Source: Candidatus Woesebacteria bacterium | GTDB taxonomy: Bacteria; Patescibacteriota; Microgenomatia; UBA1400; UBA1396 | NCBI GenBank assembly: GCA_021208605.1 | Contig: JAJOJK010000005.1 | Span: 10,214-74,213 of the forward strand | Direction of reading: 5' to 3' | DNA: 64,000 nt | Part shown: piece after piece, positions 3,580 to 51,221 of the stretch | How the letters are laid out: each line of letters opens with the position of its first letter | Position numbering within the stretch: position 1 is the stretch's first letter | The notes under the pieces: generated by a model | Told to the model about the DNA's origin: nothing | Seen by the model: the letters and a program-made list of their open reading frames with translations, nothing else | The model's database searches: none | Translations under genes and position numbers: made by a program

Positions 3580-5469
3580 TTACTTCTTTCGTTGCACGGA
3601 TTTCTTTTTACGCGTGCTTTTTTGTCGTCGCTTTTTGGTGGAGAGGTATCCTTTTTCACCGCCATGACGAGACTCGGCGGTTTCCTCTACCTTTTGCAGT
3701 AAAGCGGAAAGTTCTGAAGTTGCTATTTTTTTGGCTCGACGCTCAAAAGCGAATTGCTGTGCCACCACTCCATCCTTTACCAGGAGCGCCAGCGAAACAC
3801 CCACCACTAACCAGAGTGTGTAGGCCACCTTTGAAGCTACAAACACGTCGATATAGGTTCCATTGATCATCAGCGCAATGAGACCGCTAAAGAGACCGAT
3901 CGCCACCGCCGAATGCAGCGGGTCCGCACTCTGGCGGAAAGCGCGGTACGCATACCAAAGGACTAAACCAAGTGCACCGTAGTAGAAGAAGAAACCAAGC
4001 GCACCATTTTCGCCGAGAGTACGCAGGTAGTTATTATCAGTACTTTCAGCCTCGGTGAACTGCTCGACAGTCGTCTTGGTCAATGTGGCGTACCCAGACC
4101 CAACCACCGGATTATTGTAGAACCCTTGCATGGCTTGCGGCCACAGTGTTTCTAGGCGAATACAAAGTGACAAACTGTTGTTGATTGAACACTCGGAATA
4201 GACGCGTTCTTTGACCAACTTGTCACCCTTTTGGACCAACTCACCAGCCAGAGTCGCCGCCGGATCATCGAGTTCGTACTCTTTTTCTGGCACATCATCA
4301 TAGACATCCTGTGGACGCTCGGTAGTCGGCTGTGTATCGCTGACCGTCATGCCTTGTTCGTTGAGCTCCTTTTCGAGCTCGTCGGTTGACTTCGCACCCG
4401 CAGGCGGGCCACTCGGTTCTTTCTTTTTCAAGAACTCTAAATCCATAGCAATCACAGAAGAGGGATCTTCTTTAAATTTGGTAAATGTATCGTAGGCTTC
4501 ATGGACCTGTGGATACTTCTCTCGATCAACTAACTGAATAAAGCGGCTACTCAGATCGCCAACAGCCAAAAGCATAATTCCGCTCACCAAGTACACGACG
4601 AATCCACGCGAGAAAAAGAACCACCACGATTTACGCTGCAAAGCAAAAAACAACACCACAAAACCAATTCCAATCGCAAACCCGCCAAAGGAAGAACGTG
4701 CTCCCGACATTACCAGCAGCCATAAGCCAGCGAACCACGCAATTCCAGTCAACACGTACAAAATCACTCGCCATCGGCCACGTAACCAGCGTTCTGCTTC
4801 AGCATATTTTTTGCCTAATACAAAGAAGAAAGATAATGCGATTGGCAGAATAAATGCCAAATACGCACCTAAATCATAGTGACCAGCAAACGTAGACTGC
4901 ACCCGGGCGAAGGGGCCCAAATAGAGTCGGACACCTTTGCTAAACTCACGATTCATAGTCGAGTACACTGGCCAATACCAGAATTTCTGGCCGTAGCCAT
5001 AAAACACGACTGCCAACAACGTAATACCCATGGCGCCAAAGAGCACCAAAGCATCACGACGAGTTTTTACCGCTGAATAGGCAATAAAGAACAAAGAAAA
5101 GTACTGGATGTGTCGCATCCAGTGCAGCATCGATTTTCCAAAATGGAGCACTTCCGCAGGAATCGTTTGCGTCAAAACCACGCCGAGCACATTCGACAGC
5201 AATCCAGTCACTAAGTACGCCCCAATAAAGAGCGTCAAGGGAGTTCGCCAGTGCACTTTTTTGCGTAAAACTTGCAAACTCCACCACGCAAACACAAACA
5301 AGATAAAGAAATCTTCAAGACGAACCCGCACAATATACCCAGGAATAATTTCTCCCAGCGGGATTTTAGGGTACAAAGGGATAAAGATTATCAGGAACGC
5401 CGTCGCCAGCAATAAGAAATTATTGTCGAACCAGTTCCAAAGCTTCCTGATAAGTGCGCTGTTGACCAT
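3580..5469 (-). CDS. O-antigen ligase/polymerase-like membrane protein (Wzy_C domain) with a large acidic extracytoplasmic insert and a Lys-rich C-tail
   Basis: Multi-TM protein carrying the Wzy_C signature DNNYLRTLGENGALGFFFYYGALG. This matches the HNxYL..E.G..G ligase motif, but with N in place of the usual His. Start set at ATG 5469 (MVNSALIRKL); the track's 5487 start is a TTG. Confidence 0.6.
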   Translation of the reverse strand: MVNSALIRKLWNWFDNNFLLLATAFLIIFIPLYPKIPLGEIIPGYIVRVRLEDFFILFVFAWWSLQVLRKKVHWRTPLTLFIGAYLVTGLLSNVLGVVLTQTIPAEVLHFGKSMLHWMRHIQYFSLFFIAYSAVKTRRDALVLFGAMGITLLAVVFYGYGQKFWYWPVYSTMNREFSKGVRLYLGPFARVQSTFAGHYDLGAYLAFILPIALSFFFVLGKKYAEAERWLRGRWRVILYVLTGIAWFAGLWLLVMSGARSSFGGFAIGIGFVVLFFALQRKSWWFFFSRGFVVYLVSGIMLLAVGDLSSRFIQLVDREKYPQVHEAYDTFTKFKEDPSSVIAMDLEFLKKKEPSGPPAGAKSTDELEKELNEQGMTVSDTQPTTERPQDVYDDVPEKEYELDDPAATLAGELVQKGDKLVKERVYSECSINNSLSLCIRLETLWPQAMQGFYNNPVVGSGYATLTKTTVEQFTEAESTDNNYLRTLGENGALGFFFYYGALGLVLWYAYRAFRQSADPLHSAVAIGLFSGLIALMINGTYIDVFVASKVAYTLWLVVGVSLALLVKDGVVAQQFAFERRAKKIATSELSALLQKVEETAESRHGGEKGYLSTKKRRQKSTRKKKSVQRKK

Positions 5470-6544
5470 ACCGTCGCAGTATACCAAAAATTATCGTACG
5501 GAGAATGAGACCAATTGTGAGAATGCGGCGCAGGATCCACTCATCCAGGGGAGAACGATGTTTTTGCCACATATACAGCAATCCAGAAATTTCCCCGTGA
5601 ATAGATGCTTTGTGACCCGCGCTTGCAGAACCTAAGTGCGTCACTTTGGCCTTGGAGGACAAAGCCACATCCCAGTGACGGAGCGTGGCGCGCCAGCAGA
5701 GATCAACATCTTCGCCATACATGAAAATTTCGCTATCAAAACCGCCAATTTCATCAATGCAGGAGCGGGAGATCATCATCGCAGTTCCTCCGACCCAACC
5801 AACTTTGGCCAACGGCCGGCGGTGTAAGCGCCTCATATCATGCAAGTGGTGTTGGTAAGCCGGCAAGCGGTCGAGTCCGGGAATATCATCGAGAAAAGTA
5901 GCCCACAAAAAGACATTCCAGTTGGTGGGCAGGCTTCCGCCTTGGCGTTGCAGTGATTTGTCTTCGTTACGCAGCTCGGCGGCGATGATGCCGACATTGT
6001 CGAGTCGTGACTGCATGCGCGCCAATACAGAAGTTGATTTACTGGGACGACGACGAAACTGTTTGACCAAATTTTTGATTGTACTCGGCTGTACGAAAGC
6101 ATCGGAGTTCAAAAAGAACACATACTCCGCTGCACTCCCCGCTGCAGCCAAGTTGTTCGCGCGACCAAAACCAAGGTTGCGATCAGACGGAAACAAAACG
6201 ATTTCATGACCAGCCTCTTCTCCGGCGTAGACCGTAGAAACTGCGGTCACGTCTACCTTTACACTCGGAAAAGTATCAATAACATCGGCATTATGGAGCG
6301 TTTCTTGCCATGTCTGCCAGCGTTTTTTACTCGCCCGCAAACCGTACTTCCGGCGCAGCTGGTTCAGGGTTCGGTCAGTGGAACAGTTGTCCGCAACAAG
6401 AATCTCCAAATTCACGCCGGTCGATTTCAATACGGCATCAAGACATTTTTGTGTCAAAGCAGCGGTGTTGTACGAGACAACGACTACAGTTACTCGAGGA
6501 ATTTGGCGGTTTGTGCTCTCTGGCATATCTGGCATGGGGTGCAT
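5420..6544 (-). CDS. Glycosyltransferase family 2
   Basis: Reads RVTVVVVSYNTAALTQKCLDAV...ILVADNCSTD...FFLNSDAF, a GT2 fold. Start set at the internal ATG (MHPMPDMPES); the longer ORF N-terminus overlaps the neighbouring gene. Confidence 0.8.
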   Translation of the reverse strand: MHPMPDMPESTNRQIPRVTVVVVSYNTAALTQKCLDAVLKSTGVNLEILVADNCSTDRTLNQLRRKYGLRASKKRWQTWQETLHNADVIDTFPSVKVDVTAVSTVYAGEEAGHEIVLFPSDRNLGFGRANNLAAAGSAAEYVFFLNSDAFVQPSTIKNLVKQFRRRPSKSTSVLARMQSRLDNVGIIAAELRNEDKSLQRQGGSLPTNWNVFLWATFLDDIPGLDRLPAYQHHLHDMRRLHRRPLAKVGWVGGTAMMISRSCIDEIGGFDSEIFMYGEDVDLCWRATLRHWDVALSSKAKVTHLGSASAGHKASIHGEISGLLYMWQKHRSPLDEWILRRILTIGLILRTIIFGILRRYGQQRTYQEALELVRQ

Positions 6545-6596
6545 TATGGTCGGAAACCGTGTTTTGCACAAGGGGCGACACAGGTACAATACAGCT

Positions 6597-17436: not shown

Positions 17437-17457
17437 ATCGCTATTGTAAATTATTTA

Positions 17458-17470
17458 TTACATTTTGTAA
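17458..17470 (-). promoter_or_regulatory. Palindrome TTACA-ttt-TGTAA upstream of the membrane-protein/XRE/HEAT operon
   Basis: Shares the TGTAA/TTACA half-site with 10316-10333, in an AT-rich 306-bp intergenic region. Additional TGTAAA copies lie nearby. Confidence 0.4.
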
Positions 17471-17742
17471 AGTATTTTTTACTTTTCATGCAAAAGAAAA
17501 GCCATCAAATGTAAAAAAAGCGGTTATATCTGCCACATTTCGAGGAGCTTATACATCAGAAAAGCAGGCCAAAAGAGCGCTTTTCCGATTCCCCACAGTC
17601 CATCAATAAAACTGCTGGCATGGGTGAGATAGTAGATCAAAGCACCTACGACGCCAAGTCCGTAGACGGCATCCCCACCGGAGTTACAAAAATTTTTTGA
17701 CATACTTTTAGCTTACGCTTACGGAAAAAAGAAAGCAATATC

Positions 17743-22142: not shown

Positions 22143-22720
22143 ACAGCAACTTTTTCTTTGACTGCAGTAACTTCGCCATTTTCCACGACAACTTCAAAGA
22201 ACTCGCCTTTTTCCAGCCAACCAGGGATAGTGTCTTCCGGAGCATTGTCGTCAACGAGCGGAATGTTCTGAATATATGAGTAGAGGACTTGTAGGGGATC
22301 GCCATGGCTGCAAAGAATTGTGTTTTCTGTTGTGGAAAGAATGACTTCATCCCAAAATTCGGCCATTCTTTTTTGGAGCATAGCTAAGGTTTCACCGCCG
22401 AGCTCATCAATATGGCTAAAAAAGTGATAGCCATCTGCATGCTGATTTTCGCCCCAGTACCCCTGATACGCCGAGAGCGTTTCTAAAATACGCTGGTCAT
22501 TCGAAATAGGAACGGTATCGTTGGCAATTATCTCGGACGTTTGTTGACACCGCAAAACCGCACTAGAATAGATGTGACTGATATTCTTTGTTGCGAAAAA
22601 CTCTTGGAGTCTCTGGGCATGCAACTTCCCGCTCTCTGAGAGAGGAACCGGTAATCGACCAGGCAAAATATTGCGAGGATTGTCATAGGCGCAGTGTCGG
22701 AGGAGGTAGATTGAGTGCAT
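22139..22720 (-). CDS. Histidine phosphatase superfamily (phosphoglycerate mutase-like) protein
   Basis: IYLLRHCAYDNP... (RHG-type catalytic His region) ...LCSHGDP. Confidence 0.7.
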   Translation of the reverse strand: MHSIYLLRHCAYDNPRNILPGRLPVPLSESGKLHAQRLQEFFATKNISHIYSSAVLRCQQTSEIIANDTVPISNDQRILETLSAYQGYWGENQHADGYHFFSHIDELGGETLAMLQKRMAEFWDEVILSTTENTILCSHGDPLQVLYSYIQNIPLVDDNAPEDTIPGWLEKGEFFEVVVENGEVTAVKEKVAV

Positions 22721-22757
22721 GCGGAGAGTATAGCAGAGATATTAAAAGGAAGTTGTT

Positions 22758-22794
22758 TTTTACTCTACGAGTAAACAAATAATATTCACTTATA
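22758..22794 (+). promoter_or_regulatory. Palindrome TTTACTC-tac-GAGTAAA plus a TATAAT box 8 nt upstream of the alr ATG
   Basis: 7-bp perfect arms at 22758-22774. TATAAT at 22789-22794, ATG at 22803. Confidence 0.4.
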
Positions 22795-22802
22795 ATTTAA
22801 AT

Positions 22803-23942
22803 ATGTTTTTTACTTCATTAGCCAAAAAACACTATCGTCATCTGAATAAAATATTGATCAACCAAGCAGCACTCCGCCACAACCACCAGGTTCTGCAAGC
22901 GTTTCACCCAGAAGCAAAAATCGTTCCTGTTTTAAAAAGCAATGCGTATGGACATGGCCTCAAAGTAGTGGCTCCAATCTTCGATGCACTCAAGCCTGAG
23001 TTTTTAGTAGTTGATAGTCTCTATGAGGCGTACGAGCTGTATAAAATAAAAGTCAAATCAAAGATTCTCATCCTTGGCTATACTCACCCGGACAACTTTT
23101 CAATCAAGCAACTACCATTCCATATCACGATATTTGACTTAGTAACTGCAAAAAAACTCAATAAGTATCAGAAAGATTGCAAGGTTCATATTTTCGTGGA
23201 CACAGGCATGTGCCGAGAGGGTGTCCCCATCGCAGATCTGCCCGAGTTTATTCAAGAAGTAAAAAAATTACAGAACCTACATATAGTTGGACTCACATCA
23301 CATCTGGCCGATGCCGATAATCCACAAGACAACTCGTTCACAGAAAAACAAATTACCAACTATAAAAAAGCTTTACAAATTCTTGAAGAGAAAGGAATTA
23401 CTCCTCAATATCGTCAAATTTCCGCTTCTGGTGGAGCGTTCAAAATAAAAGATCCTACGTTTACTCTCATCCGCGCTGGATTAGCTAGCTATGGGATCAA
23501 TCCGCTAGAACCTTCAGACCCAGAATTTCAATCACTGCAGCTCCAACCAGCTCTTCGATTTACGAGCACACTCGCCCAAATTAAAACGATTCATAATGGT
23601 GACAAAATTGGTTACAACGGCACCTTTACTGCTAAAAAAACCATGACTATTGGCTTGCTCCCGCTTGGGTATTATGAAGGAGTTGATAGACGGCTTTCGA
23701 ATACAGGTTCTGTAACCATTGGCGATACAACTTGCCCAATTCTAGGGAGAGTCTCAATGAACATGACAAGTATAGATATCTCGAATGTCAAAAATCCGCA
23801 GGTAGGTGACACCGTTTGTATCTATAGTGACCAAGACAGAGATAACAGCATCGTGAACGCCGCGAAAATTGCTGAGACTATTCCGTATGAGCTCCTGGTA
23901 CATTTATCGGAATCGGTGAGACGAGAAATTATTGATAAGTAA
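22803..23942 (+). CDS. alr: Alanine racemase
   Basis: VPVLKSNAYGHGL is the PLP-Lys motif; 379 aa. Lower GC than the upstream flank. Confidence 0.9.
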   Translation: MFFTSLAKKHYRHLNKILINQAALRHNHQVLQAFHPEAKIVPVLKSNAYGHGLKVVAPIFDALKPEFLVVDSLYEAYELYKIKVKSKILILGYTHPDNFSIKQLPFHITIFDLVTAKKLNKYQKDCKVHIFVDTGMCREGVPIADLPEFIQEVKKLQNLHIVGLTSHLADADNPQDNSFTEKQITNYKKALQILEEKGITPQYRQISASGGAFKIKDPTFTLIRAGLASYGINPLEPSDPEFQSLQLQPALRFTSTLAQIKTIHNGDKIGYNGTFTAKKTMTIGLLPLGYYEGVDRRLSNTGSVTIGDTTCPILGRVSMNMTSIDISNVKNPQVGDTVCIYSDQDRDNSIVNAAKIAETIPYELLVHLSESVRREIIDK

Positions 23943-24043
23943 TTTCTACGGCTGTTACAACGGAATGTGTTGAGGGAATATTGCAAGATGCGACAACCTG
24001 TTGAGGGGGGGTATTAGACGGGTCTGTCAGACTATCAGTTGTT

Positions 24044-24066
24044 GCGGGGAGGATGGGATTCTCACC
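24044..24066. repeat. Degenerate (17/23) copy of the tRNA-Ser T-arm/acceptor 3' segment at the far edge of the low-GC island
   Basis: GCGGGGAGGATGGGATTCTCACC versus GCGGAGGCGGTGGGATTCGAACC. Shares the TTGTTGCGG prefix with the repeat at 28499. Two further TGTTGAGGG copies lie at 23969-23977 and 23997-24005. Confidence 0.4.
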
Positions 24067-24129
24067 ACATCTGGTAGCACCGCTATTTTAGCTTACATTT
24101 AGAGTGTTGCAAAGCTCATCTTTGAAAGA

Positions 24130-24807
24130 TTACACAATTTTTCCATCTTTAAGATTAACAATTCTCTTTGCAAATGAAGCAGTGAAATCATCATGGGTTA
24201 CTAGCAAAATTGTTTTATTTTCTTCTTTATTTAGTTTACTGAGAATCTCCATCACTTCTTTAGCTGATTTACTATCTAAATTGCCAGTAGGTTCATCAGC
24301 TAAAATAATATCAGGATCATTCATCAGTGAACGAGCAATGGCAACTCTCTGACGTTGTCCTCCCGACATTTCACTCGGTTTATTATTAATTCTATCTCCC
24401 AATCCAAGTTTTTCTAGCAATTCTTTAGCTCTACCACTTTTCTCTTCACCAGCATAAAAACTTGGCAAACTTACATTTTTAAGTGCTGATTGCCTTGGGA
24501 GCAGGTTGAAGTTTTGGAATACAAAACCTAAATATTTGTTACGAACATCAGCAAGTTGATCTTTATTGAAATTTGCTACATCATCTTTATCTAAGTAATA
24601 CTCACCACTATTAGGAGTATCCAAACAACCAATAATATTCATTAGTGTTGATTTGCCACTACCAGAAGGACCCATTAAGCACACAAACTCACCTCTGTTA
24701 ATTATTAGATCAATTCCATGAAGAATTGGAAATTCTTGATTGCTTAAGTAGTAACTTTTTGTGATTTTTTTTAAGGTAATCAGTGGTTTTTTCTTTGTCG
24801 TTCTCAT
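24130..24807 (-). CDS. ABC transporter ATP-binding protein (MacB/LolD-type)
   Basis: Walker A GPSGSGKST, signature LSGGQRQRVAIAR, Walker B ILADEPTGNLD. Start set at ATG 24807 (the track start at 24822 is a TTG). Confidence 0.85.
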   Translation of the reverse strand: MRTTKKKPLITLKKITKSYYLSNQEFPILHGIDLIINRGEFVCLMGPSGSGKSTLMNIIGCLDTPNSGEYYLDKDDVANFNKDQLADVRNKYLGFVFQNFNLLPRQSALKNVSLPSFYAGEEKSGRAKELLEKLGLGDRINNKPSEMSGGQRQRVAIARSLMNDPDIILADEPTGNLDSKSAKEVMEILSKLNKEENKTILLVTHDDFTASFAKRIVNLKDGKIV

Positions 24808-24812
24808 ATATT

Positions 24813-25838
24813 TTATTTCCAACTGGCCACAGATTGTCCACTACTAAGACCTGAAATTACCTCAACTTCTTTTCCATTAGTAAATCCCAACTCTACAGGT
24901 GATTTTATTAATTGGTTATTTTCGATTATATAAACAACAGCTTGATTTCCTTCTCTTTTTACAGCAGAGTTTGGAATCTTAAATACATCCGTCGATTCTT
25001 TACTAATTATCTCAACTTCCCCAAGCATACCATCAAGTAATTTTTGATCTGCGTTATTAAAAATTATAATAACTTTATAGGTTGATAAGTCATTACTATC
25101 TATAGTTGCTAGTCTTGAAACATACGATACTGTACCCAGAATCTCTTGGTCAGGAAGTGCTTCAAGCATGATGCGAGCTTTCATGCCTTCTTCAATTTTG
25201 AGTGCTTCGATATCCTCAGCAAAGACTTCAAAATGAAAGCTATTTTCATCAATAATGGTAATAGCGACTGATTGATTTTGTGATGAAACTGTTTCCCCTG
25301 GCTTAATATTTACTTGAGCAACAGTTCCAGCTATAGGCGAACTAAGATATGATTTTTTTTGTGCTAAATCTTTAAGTTCGACATCTAGAACTGCTTTTTC
25401 TAAATCCCACTGGTTTTTTTCTAAAATTCTTTTAATAGTATCCGTAAGAGGAACCCCTGGATACGTAGCCTGAATCATTTCTTCAAAATCATTACGATCT
25501 TTTGAATAGTCTCGCAATGCTAATTCAAGATTTTTTTGAGCTTCTCTAGTATCTAAATAAGCAAGTGTTTGCCAAGGTTTTACAATATCACCTTCATTAA
25601 CGTTAACTCCACGCACAGTCCCGCCTATTTCAAATGAAAGATCACGACGGGCAATTACTGTTTTGCCATCTAAATTGAGGGAAACACTGACATTGCCTTT
25701 AGTTACTTTAGCTGTTTCATAGGTTGGTTGTTCGCTAGATTGGTTTGCTTGCAGTTGTTTCCAACCATATAATCCAATACTACCTAACAAACCAAGTCCT
25801 AGTATTACAACAGCTAGTCTTTTATGTTTAAGGATCAT
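24813..25838 (-). CDS. HlyD/MacA-like periplasmic adaptor (efflux membrane-fusion protein)
   Basis: 341 aa with an N-terminal TM, a coiled-coil region and a beta-barrel region, typical of the HlyD_D23 family. Lies in the low-GC island. Confidence 0.7.
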   Translation of the reverse strand: MILKHKRLAVVILGLGLLGSIGLYGWKQLQANQSSEQPTYETAKVTKGNVSVSLNLDGKTVIARRDLSFEIGGTVRGVNVNEGDIVKPWQTLAYLDTREAQKNLELALRDYSKDRNDFEEMIQATYPGVPLTDTIKRILEKNQWDLEKAVLDVELKDLAQKKSYLSSPIAGTVAQVNIKPGETVSSQNQSVAITIIDENSFHFEVFAEDIEALKIEEGMKARIMLEALPDQEILGTVSYVSRLATIDSNDLSTYKVIIIFNNADQKLLDGMLGEVEIISKESTDVFKIPNSAVKREGNQAVVYIIENNQLIKSPVELGFTNGKEVEVISGLSSGQSVASWK

Positions 25839-26330
25839 TTAGTTTAGTCCTTTAATCTTCACAGCTTCAACCTGACCTTGTTTATCCTGCCAGATTGAAA
25901 GATAGCTACCTGTTTTAATATCAGCTAAGTTAGCTGAAATGTTTGATCCATCCGCATTGCCACTGCCAGTCATAATAGGCACACCTACAGGAATCTGCAA
26001 AGTGAGTTGTTCTGTTTCTACTGCTTCCATTTCTTCTTGACGTAAGGCCTGTCTTTCTTCTTGTGATAAGTTAGCTCGATCTTCTCGTCTAGCTATACGT
26101 TCTTCATCATTTAACGCTTCTTTAAGTTCATTTAAAACAATTACTTCATTACCTTCAATTGATTTGACTTGACCATTTATTTCCGCAGGTCTATCAGGTA
26201 ATAATGATTCAACTATTTCTACAGTTTGACTATCTATAGATGATTGATCATTTTGATTAGTATTAGTGCATGCTGAAAACACCACAGCAGATGATAAAAC
26301 TATAAAAGCGATTACTATATATTTTTTCAT
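25839..26330 (-). CDS. Hypothetical lipoprotein
   Basis: MKKYIVIAFIVLSSAVVFSAC... lipobox. Acidic, coiled-coil-like middle region. Confidence 0.5.
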   Translation of the reverse strand: MKKYIVIAFIVLSSAVVFSACTNTNQNDQSSIDSQTVEIVESLLPDRPAEINGQVKSIEGNEVIVLNELKEALNDEERIARREDRANLSQEERQALRQEEMEAVETEQLTLQIPVGVPIMTGSGNADGSNISANLADIKTGSYLSIWQDKQGQVEAVKIKGLN

Positions 26331-26347
26331 TTTGTTCCATTTACTAA

Positions 26348-27565
26348 TTATTCATATCGAAGTGCTTCAATTGGATGTAAACTGGCTGCTTTCTGGGCAG
26401 GAAAGTATCCAAAAATAACTCCAGTTCCTACTACAAAGATTAATGAAAGCAGATAACTCCACCAAACATTAATTATTGATATTCCAATCCGAACCAAAAG
26501 AAAGTACAGTCCAAAGGCAATTATAGCTCCAATTATGTATCCAATTCCACTCAGAATTAAAGCCTCAAATAAAAATTGTAATTGAATATGATGATCTTTA
26601 GCTCCGATTGCCTTCCGAAGACCAATTTCTTTGGTCCTTTCATGAACGCTAACATACATAATATTCATAATCCCAATTCCTCCTACCAATAAAACAACAA
26701 TTCCTACACTGCCCAATAAAAAAGACATTGTTTGAGCTGAATCTTTAGCCGATTGGACATTGGTACCCATATCACGGACTCGAAAATCATCCACTCCACC
26801 AAGTTTAATAGTATGATTATCCCGGAGGACCCGAGAAATATCTTCCATGGCTGTATCTAAAACATTAATATCTGTTGCTTGAGCGTTGATATTAAATTTG
26901 CCTTGTTTACCAAGTACATAGCGATACCCTGATGAGTAGGGGACAAAAATTGAGTCATCAACGGCAATGGGACCAAATGCACCACCACGATATTCTAGAA
27001 CGCCAACCACTCTAAAAGCTTTTTTACCAAGGCTTACTTCTCGGCCAATAATATTTTGAGGAGAAATTCCGTCAGTTTCAAATAAATCTTCGGCCACTGT
27101 AGCCCCAAGCACTGCTACTTTAGCACGATTATCTTCTGCCTCTTGGTCAAATTGTCCACCGGCTTGATAAGTGGCAGCTAACATAGAAAAGATATCTGGT
27201 GTACTACCAACGACTGTAAATGATGCCATATTTCCTTCTGCGGCAACATTAACTTTACCGGAAGTTTGGGGAACTGCACTAACGATAGTATCCAAATGAG
27301 CAATATCTTGGGCATCTTCAAGACTTAATTTGGACTTTGTACCGTCTTCAGCTGATGGAGCATTGATCAAAATAGTAGTTACACTCATGTTTGAGTATTG
27401 CGCATCAATATCTTGTTTCGCACCTTCTCCTAAGCCTACAACTAAAATAATCGTTGCTCCACCAATCACAATTCCCAGCATAGTTAAAAAAGCTCTAAAA
27501 CTGTGAGCGATTAAACTTTCAAAGGATAAACGCAGAATTTTAGTAGTAAATACAATTGATTTCAT
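26348..27565 (-). CDS. ABC transporter permease (FtsX/MacB-type)
   Basis: 405 aa with an N-terminal TM, a large extracytoplasmic domain and three C-terminal TMs (FtsX topology). Confidence 0.8.
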   Translation of the reverse strand: MKSIVFTTKILRLSFESLIAHSFRAFLTMLGIVIGGATIILVVGLGEGAKQDIDAQYSNMSVTTILINAPSAEDGTKSKLSLEDAQDIAHLDTIVSAVPQTSGKVNVAAEGNMASFTVVGSTPDIFSMLAATYQAGGQFDQEAEDNRAKVAVLGATVAEDLFETDGISPQNIIGREVSLGKKAFRVVGVLEYRGGAFGPIAVDDSIFVPYSSGYRYVLGKQGKFNINAQATDINVLDTAMEDISRVLRDNHTIKLGGVDDFRVRDMGTNVQSAKDSAQTMSFLLGSVGIVVLLVGGIGIMNIMYVSVHERTKEIGLRKAIGAKDHHIQLQFLFEALILSGIGYIIGAIIAFGLYFLLVRIGISIINVWWSYLLSLIFVVGTGVIFGYFPAQKAASLHPIEALRYE

Positions 27566-27573
27566 GATTTATA

Positions 27574-28299
27574 TCAATTTGCACATCGCTCAAAAGCTGG
27601 CAAATGCATTTCTTTTGAGGCATTAGCCAGTGAAGTAAATACTGTTTTAATATCTTCTTGTGCAATGTTTGGAATCATGTCTTGATAAAGTTGATCGTTA
27701 TCAATCTCTGCTTGCACACCAACAGCACATACTTCTTGTAGAGTGGCTGGTAATTCACCAACTTCAATAGTGTCTGCAGGAATTTCTACTCCATATTTAT
27801 CAAAAAGAGCTTTGAGCATTGAAATATGTTGCTCTTCTGCTCGGGCAATATTGATAAATGGGCGAACATTGCCGAATTTATCCATTGTTGCTTGATAGGT
27901 AGCTAAAGCCTTTCTTTCATCTGCCAATCCAATTTTAAGGTATTCAATGGTTTGGTTGTCTAATTCTTCTACAGGATATTCTGCATCTTCTACCAATAAG
28001 CAGCCATCCATCAGACAGTTTTGTTTAGTAAGAGTTTGATTTGCATTCGTGCCCTTTCCTTGTGAGTCTGTGTCACTAACTTTTTGATTACGTCCTTGTC
28101 CATCCATTTTTCCTTGACCATTGCCTCTTCCGTATCCAAGTGGACCATAAGATTGTTCTTGAATTGATTCAGCTACCTTTGATGATTGGGTCGTCTTTGA
28201 ATAAACAGTGGTTACAGCAAAAGTAATAAGCATACCTGTAATTACCAATCCTAAAGAGAGATATTTATTATCTGTAATTTTTTTGAGTGTTTTGTTCAT
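27574..28299 (-). CDS. DUF2202 (ferritin-like) domain protein, membrane-anchored
   Basis: N-terminal TM, then LADERKALATYQATMDKFGNVRPFINIARAEEQHISMLKALFDKYG, a ferritin-like DUF2202 pattern. Confidence 0.55.
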   Translation of the reverse strand: MNKTLKKITDNKYLSLGLVITGMLITFAVTTVYSKTTQSSKVAESIQEQSYGPLGYGRGNGQGKMDGQGRNQKVSDTDSQGKGTNANQTLTKQNCLMDGCLLVEDAEYPVEELDNQTIEYLKIGLADERKALATYQATMDKFGNVRPFINIARAEEQHISMLKALFDKYGVEIPADTIEVGELPATLQEVCAVGVQAEIDNDQLYQDMIPNIAQEDIKTVFTSLANASKEMHLPAFERCAN

Positions 28300-28500
28300 A
28301 AAAAATCTTTACATTATTCAATCACTGACACCAGTATAAATCAAAAAACTGAGAAAAACATGAGGTTGTTTGTGTGTATATAACAAATCAAACCTAACAT
28401 TACAGGCCACAGAACTGAAATATGTTTAAAACGCAGTTTTTAGGCAAGACACATCAGCCCAAATCAGATAAAAGGACAGGTCTATCAGAACTTTTCGATT

Positions 28501-28517
28501 GTTGCGGAGGCGGTGGT
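28501..28517. repeat. Near-perfect direct repeat of the 3' end of tRNA-Ser (GCGGAGGCGGTGG, 13/13, within a 15/16 match)
   Basis: 28504-28516 is identical to 28734-28746 (the tRNA acceptor 3' strand and flanking bases). Located 215 bp beyond the tRNA 3' end, at the edge of the low-GC island. Confidence 0.6.
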
Positions 28518-28700
28518 CCGCTCTGCGGACATTAGGCAGGTGCTTCGCACTTGCCGGCAGGATTCACGACTTCGTTCGCTCCCGCTCACTCTGCATGCAC
28601 TAGGGTTGCCTCGCATGTATTATAATTCGGTATGTTCGGCCCCGTCGCGAACTGAGGCTCACTTCGTTCGCTGGATTCGCTCCTGTACATCTTCCACCAA

Positions 28701-28731
28701 TAAAAAAGCAGCCATTTGGCTGCATTTTTAT
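28701..28731 (-). terminator. Intrinsic (bidirectional) terminator immediately 3' of tRNA-Ser
   Basis: GCAGCC-AAAT-GGCTGC hairpin followed by TTTTTTA on the minus strand, and by ATTTTTA on the plus strand. Confidence 0.6.
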
Positions 28732-28819
28732 TGGCGGAGGCGGTGGGATTCGAACCCACGAACCCGTGAACGGGTCAGGATTAGCAATCCTGTGCAATTG
28801 GCCACTATGCGACGCCTCC
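28732..28819 (-). tRNA. tRNA-Ser (anticodon GCU)
   Basis: Reverse complement reads GGAGGCGTCGCATAGTGGCC...CAGGA-TTGCTAA-TCCTG...CCCGTTCACGGGT (long variable arm)...GTGGGTTCGAATCCCAC-CGCCTCC-G-CCA. The 7-bp acceptor stem pairs, U33 and A37 flank the GCT anticodon, and CCA is encoded. Confidence 0.9.
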
Positions 28820-30457: not shown

Positions 30458-32118
30458 TTATGAAACGCTGGAAATAACCACCATCACTAAAGGGTTCAAT
30501 CCGAACTTGTCATTTAACAAGCGCACAATGCTCTTTTCCACATCGCGACGAAGGTCTTGGCTGGACGAATCACTCGTCTCGACCAGTTCTTCGACTGTCT
30601 GGCGAATGCGATCACGCAACTCGTCTTGTGGCACGTCTTCGCCCAAGGCGACACCGCGCATGTCGATAGCAATGTTGTCTGGATCAACCGTGCCAGCTGA
30701 CTCGAGCACCGACACCACCTATGGCGCCGTTTTTTGACCGAGCGTCTCGCGCTCGCTCAAGTGCTTGCTGATTACATCGGCCACGCCAGTGCTGTCCACA
30801 GAGCGCTCGCGGAGCTTGATTTGCTCGTCACTGTAGCGCATCTTGCCGCCTGCAAACTCAACCCACTTGCCGTCCATCGGTAGCACAACTTGTTGTGGAC
30901 GGTATCCGTGCTCACGAACCTTCAAGCCGAACAAGACGCGATGGCGATCCTCACCACCGATCGGGAAACGTATTCTGGTTGCAACAAGTGCAACAGAATC
31001 ATCTGCTCGTACTCGCTGGCGTGACCAGACACGTGCAAACCAGGATTCATCTCGGCGTAGGCCACTTCGATACCTTGGCTGGCAATGCGGTTAATGGTGC
31101 GGTAGACGTCTTTTTCGCTCCCTGGAATTGCGTCGGACGAGAAAATAATCTTATCGCCTTTGCTGACGCTAATCATGCGGTGAGAACCAAAGACCGCGCG
31201 CACCAGCGAAGACCCTGGCTGACCCTGACTCCCAGCAATTATGACACAAAGTTCACTATCTGGAATATCGTCCATGCGGCGTTTATTCACCTTCATGTCC
31301 TGCGGAATATCGAGCAGGCCCATGTTCATAGCTGTGTTGACGTTTTGTTCCACGGAACGACCAATAAAGGCCACTTTACGACCATACTCAGCGGCCACGT
31401 CGACAGCCTGTTGAATACGGTGAATGCTGGAGCTCATCAAGGTCACCAAGACTTTGCCTTCTACGTCGCGCATTTCTTCGCGGATGGCAGCGCCGACACT
31501 CGACTCAGAAGCCGCTGGCAGCGGTCGCTCGATACGCAGACAGTCAATTGCCGCACACAGAACGCCTTCGCGACCAATCTCGGCCACACGTTGGAGATCA
31601 CTCGGAATGCCATCGACTGGCGTCAAATCAAGCTTAAAGTCAGAACCGTGGTAAAAGACTCCATCAGGAGTGCGAATGACTAGGTGGCGTGTATCGGGAA
31701 TCGAGTGCGTAATCCGAATGTTCTCAACTTGGAATGGTCCAAATTCTAGAACTCCATCATCTTCAAAGTACTGCACCTCTTTTTCAACACCATTATCGGC
31801 CATACGAGTCATGGCGAACTCGGCGGTGAGTGGTGAACCAAAAATCGGCACATCAACATCAATTTCGCGCAGCACGTATGGCAGCGCCGCAATGTGGTCA
31901 TCGTGACCATGCGACAGAACAATCGCGTGCAAAGTCGCGCCTTGAGCGAGTCGGTCTTGGAGGTATTGAGAGTCTGGAATCAGGAACTCAACGCCTGGCA
32001 TGGTCTCGTCTGGGAAACCAATTCCACAGTCGACCACGAGCATGTCGTCATTGTGTTCATAGACGAATAAGTTTTTGGTGACTCCAGAAATTCCTCCCAA
32101 TGGGAAAATTTTAGTCAT
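30458..32118 (-). pseudogene. rnj: Ribonuclease J (metallo-beta-lactamase/beta-CASP), disrupted by a -1 frameshift near 30935-30945 and an in-frame TAG at 30719-30721
   Basis: N-terminal fragment: VLSHGHDDHIAALPY (HxHxDH)...HVSGHASEYEQ.... The middle fragment in another frame reads FPIGGEDRH...EHGYRPQQVV. The C-terminal fragment in the same frame follows the TAG: VVSVLESAG...FGLNPLVMVV. A T3 to T4 correction restores PEYVFPIGGEDRH. Confidence 0.8.
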
Positions 32119-34123: not shown

Positions 34124-34912
34124 TCATCTTATATTTTTGATATCTCGGTACAAATCATCAACCAAACCGGGTGGCCCATCGTCTCGACCAATAAACTCAT
34201 TGACACCAATTCCATTTAATTCAGCCACTACTGCCTGCGGATTGCTGTTCACTCGACCTTCAAGCGCTATTGTGGAAATACTGAGCTTTTTAGACAATTC
34301 TTTAAGATATTTCTCATTCAGTATTGCCTGAGTAATATCTCCACCCCGCACAAGATCAAGAATATATACCTCATACGTACCATCTCGATGCACAAGAAGA
34401 TCAAACTGATCATCCCAAGGCAGGAGAACACCACTTTCTGTTGCTTTGCGAGCAATATCTTCAGCCTGCAGACGAATATCGTTCTTATGCTTTTCGTATA
34501 CCCTCAAAAAGATATCATCCAATTCACTCAACTCAACATCATGCCGACGAATGCTTTCCTGGAATATTTTTCCAAATTTTGCCTTGCCATAAAAATCACT
34601 CCCATCTTGGGTGAGATCAGTTACATAGACTTTTTCAATTTCACCATTTTTTTCTCTTTCGATGACCCGTAGAGTTGGTGGAACGGGTAAACCAGCCTCA
34701 CGAAATAACTTCCAATTTTTTGCAAAGTCTTCCGCGGACTCTTCTCGGGCTAACATGGTAAATTCATGTCTACCAATTCTGATACGAACTCGTTCTTTCG
34801 TAGTATCTGCAGCACCAATATGAGTCCCTAGCCTTTCTGTATCTACTTGTGTAACTTCCCGAGTTGTTGCTCCGGATCCTGGTTTCAAGTGAATTTGATT
34901 ATTCTCCGCCAT
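34124..34912 (-). CDS. Hypothetical protein with an HRD...ILDL kinase-like catalytic-loop motif (atypical kinase/phosphotransferase-like, speculative)
   Basis: 262 aa reading ...FDLLVHRDGTYEVYILDLVRGGD.... No glycine-rich loop recognised. Lower GC than the neighbours. Confidence 0.35.
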   Translation of the reverse strand: MAENNQIHLKPGSGATTREVTQVDTERLGTHIGAADTTKERVRIRIGRHEFTMLAREESAEDFAKNWKLFREAGLPVPPTLRVIEREKNGEIEKVYVTDLTQDGSDFYGKAKFGKIFQESIRRHDVELSELDDIFLRVYEKHKNDIRLQAEDIARKATESGVLLPWDDQFDLLVHRDGTYEVYILDLVRGGDITQAILNEKYLKELSKKLSISTIALEGRVNSNPQAVVAELNGIGVNEFIGRDDGPPGLVDDLYRDIKNIR

Positions 34913-50450: not shown

Positions 50451-51221
50451 CTATCCTGTATTAGAAGGCTGAGGCATGGTAAGGCTATTTTTTTTAAACT
50501 CGTCGATGAGAGATTGTCTTTGCTCTGTTTCAGATGGTAAATGATATATGCTTGCTGACGGAACAGCACTTTCAAGAAAATGCAATGCCAAAACGCCTCT
50601 ATCCCAGGTCTCTTCTGTTTCGAAATGGTGGAGTTCTCCGGCTAAATAGTGTTTCACGACATCACTGAAGAGAAGTCTGGCAAAGCCAGGATTTTCTCGC
50701 GGTCCACCTTTAAATCCTTGATCATAGTAGTAAAACGAATCTTCAGCAAGACCAGTAGCCCAGTCAATGCCTTCAAGCTGTGGTTCTAATGTTTGGGGCT
50801 GAATTTCGCCACTTCTATAAAACGCCATATTGGGAAAATCTGTACTCAAAAGTTCTAAAGTTCGTGCAATCAAATGATTTACTCCGAGAAAGTCTGGTAA
50901 ACGAGATCTACCACTCAAAAAATTATCTGCTGCTTGCAGGGCAAGACCATCTGAAAGTTCACTTAACTCACGAAATGCTTGAACAGTACCCAGTCCTACT
51001 CCTAGAACAGGTGGACGATCTTCATCTTGACGCCATGTCCTCAGAATCCAGCCAGGATTCCTCAAGGCTTTTGCCATGTAGATACATAAAAAAGCCTCTT
51101 GCACTTCCAAAGATGAAAAGCTGGATGCTGTTTTTATATCTGACAGACGCAATTCTCGTACTTGTAATACTGATTGTTCACTCTCATGACCAAATCGTGA
51201 TAATAAATCCCCGATACGCAT
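50451..51221 (-). CDS. Hypothetical protein, possibly kinase/phosphotransferase-fold (APH-like C-lobe motif IDWATGLAEDSFYYYD)
   Basis: 256 aa with no clear N-lobe motifs. Low confidence on function. Confidence 0.35.
   Translation of the reverse strand: MRIGDLLSRFGHESEQSVLQVRELRLSDIKTASSFSSLEVQEAFLCIYMAKALRNPGWILRTWRQDEDRPPVLGVGLGTVQAFRELSELSDGLALQAADNFLSGRSRLPDFLGVNHLIARTLELLSTDFPNMAFYRSGEIQPQTLEPQLEGIDWATGLAEDSFYYYDQGFKGGPRENPGFARLLFSDVVKHYLAGELHHFETEETWDRGVLALHFLESAVPSASIYHLPSETEQRQSLIDEFKKNSLTMPQPSNTG

Follow-up and report, generated by a model that had tools for sequence, protein, structure and literature searches.

The closest described system to the locus discussed here comes from Dehalococcoides, where tandem genomic islands lie downstream of ssrA, bounded by direct repeats (20 bp) of the 3' end of that gene (McMurdie et al. 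2011, PMC3146451). At least one of these ssrA-linked genomic islands (ssrA-GIs) is of low GC, a serine recombinase sits on the reverse strand beside attL, and some islands have no integration module and are read as cis-mobilizable elements gathered by accretion (PMC3146451). The DNA examined here, called the window throughout, is a stretch of 64 kb from a member of Candidatus Woesebacteria. It contains a low-GC block of five co-directional minus-strand genes (24130-28299) next to a tRNA-Ser(GCU) gene. What is this block, and how did it come to lie there? We consider it likely that it is a cassette from a low-GC Patescibacterium, inserted site-specifically after the end of tRNA-Ser(GCU), between the CCGC and the AAC of the sequence CCGCAAC. 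The island itself is of an ordinary kind, a tRNA-linked acquired island; its mechanism and context are, in our view, a new variant.

Three further systems are relevant to this reading. Cis-mobilizable elements (CIMEs), exemplified by ICESt1/CIME of Streptococcus, are att-flanked, recombinase-less elements found in tandem at the 3' end of a tRNA or other gene and moved by a recombinase in trans; they are deletion derivatives of integrative and conjugative elements (ICEs) using tyrosine integrases. Integrons are built from IntI, attI and attC, and the attC sites are conserved as folded hairpins rather than as sequence. Staphylococcal cassette chromosome mec (SCCmec) elements, of 20-60 kb, are inserted at the 3' end of rlmH/orfX by the large serine recombinases CcrAB, and some have no ccr genes. 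A search of the accessible literature found no described equivalent of the present locus for Patescibacteria or Microgenomates.

How would such a locus be organized? Read in the orientation of the tRNA, a cassette would consist of a trailer (~100-125 nt), the cargo and a unit of 75-100 nt, the last 20-25 nt of which would mimic the T-arm and acceptor end of tRNA-Ser. The cassette end would thus recreate the docking site, so that cassettes could stack in direct arrays behind the tRNA. In the window the proposed order is tRNA-Ser, a 230-bp mini-element, the exporter cassette with a class A end, and finally trailer 1 with the alanine racemase gene alr. The features are listed below; coordinates are those of the whole window, and labels such as L016 denote comparison loci (reference genomes and metagenome contigs).

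28732-28819, minus strand: intact tRNA-Ser(GCU), the putative docking gene of the array (ARAGORN; Rfam tRNA, 58.4 bits).
28517-28746 (in register), minus strand: class E mini-element of 230 bp, no open reading frame (ORF), inside the tRNA 3' end (comparison with L016).
28501-28516, minus strand: right junction, with the core GTTGCGG at 28501-28507 (CCGCAAC in the tRNA sense) overlapping the displaced tRNA 3' end at 28504-28516.
24048-28507, minus strand: predicted whole exporter cassette (trailer 2, five genes, class A unit), 4,460 bp, 35.7% GC, its boundaries placed by the rule from sibling cassettes.
28400-28503, minus strand: trailer copy 2, tRNA-side start of the exporter cassette (86 matches to the 113-nt consensus, score 51; nhmmer E 7e-12).
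27574-28299, minus strand: DUF2202/rubrerythrin-like (ferritin-like) protein with an N-terminal membrane segment (Pfam).
26348-27565, minus strand: MacB-type ATP-binding cassette (ABC) permease (MacB_PCD + FtsX; Pfam, NCBIfam).
25839-26330, minus strand: lipoprotein of 163 aa (lipoprotein signal match; same operon position in L017, L018 and L020).
24813-25838, minus strand: membrane-fusion adaptor, HlyD/YknX-type (Pfam, NCBIfam).
24130-24822, minus strand: ABC ATPase, a MacB/LolD/DevA-like nucleotide-binding subunit (Pfam, NCBIfam).
24044-24122, minus strand: class A cassette-end unit with the pseudo T-arm/acceptor end ..GGTGAGAATCCCATCCTCCCCGC (nhmmer E 1.3e-26).
24041-24047, minus strand: left junction core GTTGCGG.
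23948-24043, minus strand: trailer copy 1, belonging with alr (75 matches, score 38), beginning 6 nt past the alr stop.
22803-23942, plus strand: alanine racemase gene (alr), GC 40.9%, GC at third codon positions (GC3) 0.39.

The composition of the block sets it apart from its surroundings. The five genes have 33-38% GC and GC3 of 0.18-0.23, against a GC3 of 0.48-0.63 in almost all other genes of the window, neighbours included (about 0.53). The drop to about 35% GC described in the original prediction is therefore real, but it starts from a background of 48.5% (mean of the window) to 49.7% (without the region in question) and not from 52-58%. Compared with 106 windows of the same size from the rest of the sequence, the 4.3-kb block has 35.5% GC (controls 49.6 +/- 1.2%, minimum 47.1), a dinucleotide delta* of 123 (38 +/- 15, maximum 81) and a tetranucleotide correlation r of 0.43 (0.89 +/- 0.03, minimum 0.78). 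The proposed composition check thus came out clearly, as these measures and GC3 all lie far outside the distribution of the window. A partial drop had also been claimed over alr and the phosphatase gene beyond it; alr is intermediate, and the histidine phosphatase gene is barely low (GC 45.7%, GC3 0.46).

What does the cassette carry? As judged from its domains, the cargo is a MacB-type ABC exporter with an adaptor, a lipoprotein and a ferritin-like DUF2202 protein, and Pfam and NCBIfam bear out the identities first given to the five genes. The Pfam matches include MacB_PCD (2e-36), FtsX (4e-20), ABC_tran (8e-34) and HlyD_D23 (3e-15); NCBIfam MacB regions also match, yet under the equivalog cut-off. 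A MacB_PCD+FtsX permease, an ABC ATPase and a membrane fusion protein are encoded together, as is characteristic of MacB-type exporters. The cargo resembles MacAB and YknXYZ-type exporters in these features and in the YknX-type barrel and C-terminal domains of the adaptor, but differs in having separate ATPase and permease, an additional lipoprotein and a DUF2202 partner, and no TolC-like or other outer-membrane factor gene is found in the cassette. Integrase and transposase domains are likewise missing, as first noted, both from the five genes and within ~9 kb of the block.

The nature of the boundaries emerged from a comparison of the flanks. Among relatives of alr, ~115 nt past the stop codon are conserved in genomes without this tRNA and without the island, and the same sequence is present four to five times in one 16-kb contig. 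No empty site was found along this left flank, alr lying in other contexts with no tRNA-Ser(GCU) adjoining; what the search brought out instead was the dispersed nature of the trailer module. Two copies, and no more, are present in the window (scores 38 and 51, the background reaching at most 16). In metagenome contigs an exact-pattern scan located the module in 70 loci, with 89 copies. Forty of the 89 abut an intact tRNA-Ser (GCU 16, 'ACU' 8, UGA 8, GGA 5, CGA 3), and the other 49 lie away from a tRNA, preceded by recurrent 75-100-nt units of classes A-E, mostly in direct arrays; these units end in a pseudo T-arm/acceptor ..CYCCGC. ARAGORN assigns the anticodon ACT (A34) to eight of the trailer-linked tRNA-Ser genes (L044, L045, L049, L073, L080, L090, L092 and L100), which is unusual in bacteria, where AGY codons are normally read by GCU. 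The trailer extends ~125 nt from discriminator+1 and is nearly invariant only in its first ~27 nt. Direct arrays of 2-5 modules occur in L024, L085, L091, L094, L058, L076, L082, L099 and L106, and three units stand behind the tRNA in the window. The cargo between modules is varied: DUF4395, EamA, LD-carboxypeptidase, ArsP, Ldh_2, methyltransferases, GDPD, His_Phos and alr. In viral collections nothing matched the serine recombinase, the class A unit pattern or the strict form of the trailer pattern, and a loose form of the latter gave chance matches only; an INPHARED phage search with the trailer and the tRNA end matched only the tRNA part.

The far end of the block, at its left junction, has the same modular character. 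The class A unit starts 8 nt past the ATPase stop and is 93% identical to L024 3778-3853. It accompanies unrelated cargo in seven other loci (L024, L061, L075, L085, L091, L094 and L103), so it is a cassette-end module and not an untranslated region of the exporter. This changes the reading of the repeats on which the original prediction had relied. Its 17/23 match at 24044-24066 is at chance level when taken alone and is not a copy of this tRNA; aligned as part of the reconstructed pre-insertion junction, however, it belongs to the sole significant match in the whole window (24016-24066, 42/53 columns, score 25 vs <=17), an alignment supported by nhmmer (E 3e-9). Neither this match nor the 13-mer at the right junction could be accepted as significant alone, since local-alignment scans gave equal or better chance matches elsewhere; the significance of the boundary repeats appeared only with the reconstructed junction and the profile. 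Two TGTTGAGGG strings (23968-23976 and 23999-24007), also taken for copies of the tRNA end, turned out to be internal parts of trailer copy 1.

Do such cassettes actually move? Two independent comparisons, which define the core by empty and filled sites, give the answer. L023, L024 and L085 are 99.4-99.5% identical to one another, and a 4.06-kb class A cassette without a recombinase is absent from L023, lies to the left of alr in L024 and to the right of alr in L085, with identical ends in both sites and GTTGCGG at every junction. Similarly, a 1.3-kb DUF4395 cassette (class B, 98.4% identical) follows tRNA-Ser(GGA) in L099 and a class C unit in L058, and its homology starts and stops between CCGC and A, the same position as the breakpoints of the first comparison. 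Read in the direction of the tRNA, a cassette therefore begins with its trailer and finishes with its pseudo-tRNA end, and its point of insertion is exactly behind a tRNA-Ser-like 3' end. These data show that recombinase-less sibling cassettes are moved by site-specific mobility in trans. We infer that the exporter cassette entered by the same reaction. The lack of an integrase, first taken to mean an old island or lost machinery, need not mean either, as siblings without a recombinase are mobile between sequences that are 98-99.5% identical.

Which enzyme could act in trans? A 390-aa large serine recombinase (Resolvase + Recombinase + Zn_ribbon_recom, 54-88% identity) is the strongest candidate; it occurs in 18 of ~72 short trailer-selected loci. 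In 16 of these 18 the gene is oriented with its stop codon toward the distal end of a trailer, at a distance of 0.3-1.7 kb. In the two cases with a visible far end, L024 and L060, it is a class C unit that closes the cassette with the recombinase gene. The 25 commonest Pfam families of 150 ORF clusters close to trailers include no tyrosine integrase. Taken together, the linkage suggests that a serine recombinase of the L024 type moves the cassettes. The exporter cassette would pass through a circular intermediate, with a predicted junction at which the CCGC of the class A unit is joined to AACAATCG of trailer 2.

Could the same be achieved with no dedicated recombinase, by ordinary homologous recombination of the ~125-nt trailers and the pseudo-tRNA ends, as might follow DNA uptake? 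We regard this as unlikely. The trailers are indeed long and highly similar. A ~55-nt patch that spans the proximal trailer and the pseudo-acceptor differs between L023 (11140-11277) and L024 (9120-9260) with identical flanks, and looks like gene conversion between modules; the two loci also diverge inside a gene, away from the core. Nevertheless, the empty site of L023 has no trailer on one side, where only the 7-bp core and the pseudo-tRNA end are common, and the insertion is still precise. The coincidence of the breakpoints in both comparisons and the strong, oriented linkage of serine recombinase and trailer also speak for a site-specific reaction.

The more conventional explanation, and the one closest to the original prediction, is a P4-like element that entered the tRNA-Ser 3' end by means of a tyrosine integrase, later lost, leaving decaying copies of the tRNA end as repeats. 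The geometry and the composition would fit, a 7-bp shared core is typical of tyrosine recombinases, and the 13-nt repeat bounding the mini-element genuinely copies the tRNA end. We nonetheless find this explanation clearly improbable. The acceptor-like end of the left repeat reads CCTCCCC where tRNA-Ser(GCU) has CGCCTCC, and it is constant across unrelated genomes with unrelated cargo; boundary similarity extends over ~100 nt outside the tRNA; there is no tyrosine integrase near the block or among the 25 commonest families beside trailers; and sibling cassettes without a recombinase move precisely. What holds of the serial integration first proposed is that foreign DNA arrived at the tRNA-Ser 3' end in more than one insertion event, but the repeats belong to a conserved cassette module and are not decaying scars.

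Might the trailers and units be functional RNAs or processing signals of tRNA-Ser loci, the orphan copies duplicated pseudo-genes and the low-GC operon an unrelated acquired neighbour? Among genomes of 29-48% GC the trailer stays at least 95% invariant over its initial ~27 nt, trailers stand behind all five tRNA-Ser isoacceptors, and the class E hairpins show two compensatory changes. Even so, this is very improbable. Fifteen of the 58 tRNA-Ser genes in module loci have unrelated downstream sequence and lack a trailer, which is accordingly no component of the tRNA gene; the trailer moves with the cargo and not with the tRNA (L058/L099); and cassettes are polymorphic in presence and absence with exact ends. 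RNAalifold, applied to 33 distinct trailers on both strands and also with the tRNA attached, found no stable consensus fold (~0 kcal/mol), and Rfam (gathering thresholds on the window; relaxed E on both intergenic regions and five array loci) reported tRNAs only, without a match to trailer or unit. Two other roles were tried and rejected. Units A-C are not tRNA genes, having no acceptor pairing and being negative in ARAGORN and Rfam, and the trailer is not an outward promoter, as cassette genes are in mixed orientation and promoter-like matches in the island are not above shuffled expectation.

That a foreign low-GC contig was wrongly joined or binned beside the tRNA is hardly credible: the source is a metagenome-assembled genome (MAG) with frameshift-type errors and trailers do break assemblies (L016 and several metagenome contigs end there), but both junctions have the expected module structure and are identical in at least seven independent assemblies from different runs. 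Exact-protein look-ups placed the block with the same neighbours in the Candidatus Woesebacteria MAGs GCA_021209405.1, GCA_021208925.1 and GCA_021208155.1 and in several Logan assemblies; the block is not mis-joined, because all conspecific assemblies show these neighbours, on contigs up to 409 kb. RNase J (30458-32118) is split in the window into a 398-aa ORF (30922-32118) and a remainder, and is a single 552-aa ORF in sister assemblies; alr, the ATPase and the permease are also split or shortened in some sister assemblies. The split ORFs look like assembly frameshift errors and not biology. Contigs stop in or at trailers in L016 (13282-13355) and at the ends of L043, L047, L051, L067 and L085. 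The trailer module behaves as an assembly-breaking repeat, so arrays would be hidden in short-read MAGs.

If the block is a site-specifically inserted cassette, what does the tRNA-Ser locus look like in relatives? The intact tRNA-Ser(GCU) lies 433 bp from the DUF2202 start, very near the ~430 bp first given, with its 3' end toward the block. Relatives of RNase J in reference genomes gave five loci for comparison of the right flank. The PNPase..RNase J-YgjP-tRNA-Ser synteny is kept in all five, and beyond the tRNA none matches the window; L013-L016 differ past the tRNA. A large serine recombinase ORF, antisense to the tRNA, extends into its 3' end in L014 and L015. L015 (12948-17525) has a complete 4.4-kb element at the orthologous tRNA-Ser(GCU), encoding a 493-aa serine recombinase whose last 13 codons run antisense through the tRNA 3' end, a Rep protein (REP_ORF2-G2P/RepSA-like) and two unknown ORFs, and ending in a displaced tRNA end and trailer at 17451-17525. 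The junction CCATTCG of L015 also occurs in L014 and L063. The same genes at the same GC beside tRNA-Ser in related genomes would have spoken against acquisition; what is found past the tRNA is DNA that differs among relatives, in one case with an integrated element, and the site is thus an integration hot spot. An empty site was not found through this right flank, the relatives being too distant or their contigs ending at the tRNA.

The space between the block and the tRNA holds a later insertion. A tRNA-end repeat at 28501-28517 had been proposed as a boundary of the island. The 13-mer GCGGAGGCGGTGG is indeed exact at 28504-28516 and 28734-28746, but it bounds the mini-element and reflects a separate, later event. 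In the sister species L016 (RNase J 97%) ..CAACAAGTGAAAAGTTCTGATAG.. comes straight after the tRNA; in the window this sequence is at 28478-28503, adjoining GCGGAGGCGGTGG. The window therefore carries a 230-bp insertion in the tRNA 3' end. The copy at 28504-28516 is the tRNA's own displaced 3' end, and the mini-element provides the encoded CCA of the tRNA. It contains a bidirectional terminator at 28708-28723 (terminator scan), hairpins at 28516-28530 and 28535-28555, and the 12-nt motif ACTTCGTTCGCT at 28569-28580 and 28661-28672, 92 nt apart, the duplication described originally. Homologous mini-elements occur in tRNA-Ser GCU (L013), UGA (L046) and CGA (L091). The repeat around the mini-element in L046, L091 and the window is a 13-nt stretch that matches the host tRNA end exactly; in L013 the distal copy is ~12 nt, GTGGAGGGATTC, deeper in the T arm. 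The window copy is 70-90 bp longer than these relatives, which makes an internal duplication likely.

The history of the locus could then be as follows. Trailer 1 and alr would first have stood behind tRNA-Ser(GCU); the class A exporter cassette would then have been inserted at the tRNA end; and the class E mini-element would finally have entered the last 13 nt of the tRNA, duplicating them. This last step is placed later because L016 has no mini-element. As the mini-element now stands between the tRNA and the tRNA-side junction of the cassette and leaves only 13 nt of tRNA beside the core, it has probably disabled excision and frozen the cassette. The alr gene is probably what remains of an older adjoining cassette (trailer 1 + alr) whose far-end unit is missing in the window. 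The adjacency of alr stop and trailer is conserved in L023-L026, L085 and L107, and a trailer and a class B unit enclose alr as a one-gene cassette in L024 and L085. The phosphatase of the window and the His_Phos gene of cassette Y show no homology at E below 1e-6.

Where did the exporter come from? Its closest relatives (84-91% aa) are in Patescibacteria. The permease homologues form a top tier of 84-90% aa, followed by 66% and then by 53-61% in Roizman-, Shapiro- and Moranbacteria. Those of 84-87% lie in three unrelated neighbourhoods (L017, L018, L020), each with the permease-lipoprotein-adaptor-ATPase core. These loci have 36.5-37.4% GC throughout, so the operon is compositionally at home there, in line with the original expectation of nearest homologues in a low-GC lineage. 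There is good support for transfer of the operon out of a low-GC Patescibacterium. Further exporter/DUF2202 cassettes stand behind tRNA-Ser in L051, L082/L095 and L020, and DUF2202 homologues adjoin tRNA-Ser trailers in L051 (62%) and L082 (79% over 154 aa). Directly upstream of the 87%-identical exporter operon of L020, positions 5151-5800 hold a truncated piece of an ABC ATPase gene, then a class C unit and an incomplete trailer; this points to a tandem pair of exporter cassettes in a putative donor-type lineage. The low-GC locus L018 (4835-16005) has its 84%-identical exporter operon between convergent tRNA-Ser(GCU) and tRNA-Ser(GGA), and an 81-aa remnant of the trailer-linked serine recombinase at 6331-6573.

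Several observations weigh against site-specific insertion of a cassette, or limit what can be drawn from it. Neither an empty site nor an excised circle was found for the exporter cassette: all conspecific assemblies are filled and the L016 contig ends inside the trailer. Trailer copy 2 is degenerate (86/113) and the attL side is now interrupted. Searches of the whole 64-kb window by tblastn with two serine recombinases gave no match, the link between recombinase and cassettes is one of association, and the short core is of a size more typical of tyrosine recombinases. The trailers are long enough for homologous recombination to contribute, and exchange between them by this route evidently takes place as well, as the 55-nt patch of L023/L024 indicates. 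Because the metagenome loci were picked by the trailer pattern itself, the frequencies given above are biased. Finally, the best DNA match to the operon is 78% identity over 24131-27565, so either the true donor is missing from the sampled genomes or the transfer is not of very recent date; since trailer 2 is common to L016, the entry of the exporter cassette, or at least of its trailer, predates the species split.

How does a site-specifically inserted cassette of this kind compare with the systems introduced at the outset? The cassettes are best seen as a variant of the tandem island accretion described for ssrA-GIs. Both have tandem units bounded by repeats resembling the target 3' end (three units in the window), a low-GC island and islands without integration genes. 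The reverse-strand serine recombinase on the attL side is present in 16 of 18 related loci and in L015, and absent from this window; it has Pfam domains in common with DsiB/CcrB. The target differs (tRNA-Ser of any isoacceptor here, tmRNA there), as do the crossover (at the very end of the gene here, in the T-loop there) and the repeated module (~200 nt of unit, pseudo-tRNA end and trailer here, 20 bp there); the present cassettes are of 1.3-7 kb, mostly without an integration module, and their host belongs to the Candidate Phyla Radiation (CPR). CIMEs share the att-flanked recombinase-less elements in tandem and the recombinase in trans, but here recombinase-less units dominate, their end module is dedicated and conserved, and conjugation genes are not linked to them. 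In SCCmec, too, insertion at the extreme 3' end leaves a conserved gene intact, and short repeats flank composite or tandem elements; the two systems differ in target gene, host and size, and only the present one has a trailer-like conserved arm.

The likeness to integrons lies in the arrays of small recombinase-less cassettes with one site each, a fixed docking site and varied cargo, and, if the model holds, in the newest cassette being nearest the docking site. In contrast to integrons, there is no IntI-type tyrosine recombinase near the tRNA in the window or in the 25 commonest trailer-linked families, and the sites are conserved in sequence and not in folded structure. The cassettes are often multi-gene and in mixed orientation, presumably with their own promoters, and docking is at a tRNA end. 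We therefore propose, tentatively and with somewhat more doubt than confidence, that the window shows an array of an undescribed integron-like cassette system in Microgenomates-type CPR bacteria, in which any tRNA-Ser 3' end can serve for docking, each cassette has a ~200-nt module that restores the docking site, most are moved in trans by a dedicated large serine recombinase, and even housekeeping genes, alr among them, can travel as single-gene cassettes.

Two single genes elsewhere in the window, 34124-34912 (GC3 0.30) and 50451-51221 (GC3 0.29), also have low GC3 and no Pfam match. The product of the first is only 33% identical in L016, while its neighbours are 93-98% identical. Both may be small independent acquisitions.

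The mobile elements and gene-exchange routes of CPR bacteria are poorly known, their genomes being tiny and having few recognisable integrases. For the window itself, the analysis provides a precise island boundary and a corrected reading of the repeats. If the cassette system is real, a trailer plus a pseudo-tRNA end would be a simple signature of exchanged cassettes across many Patescibacteria. It would explain compositional islands like this one and the assembly breaks at tRNA-Ser loci, as well as swaps of transporter genes, and even of cell-wall genes, between lineages more than 10% apart in GC. A natural serine recombinase with defined ~50-bp sites would also be a candidate genetic tool for organisms that now have none.

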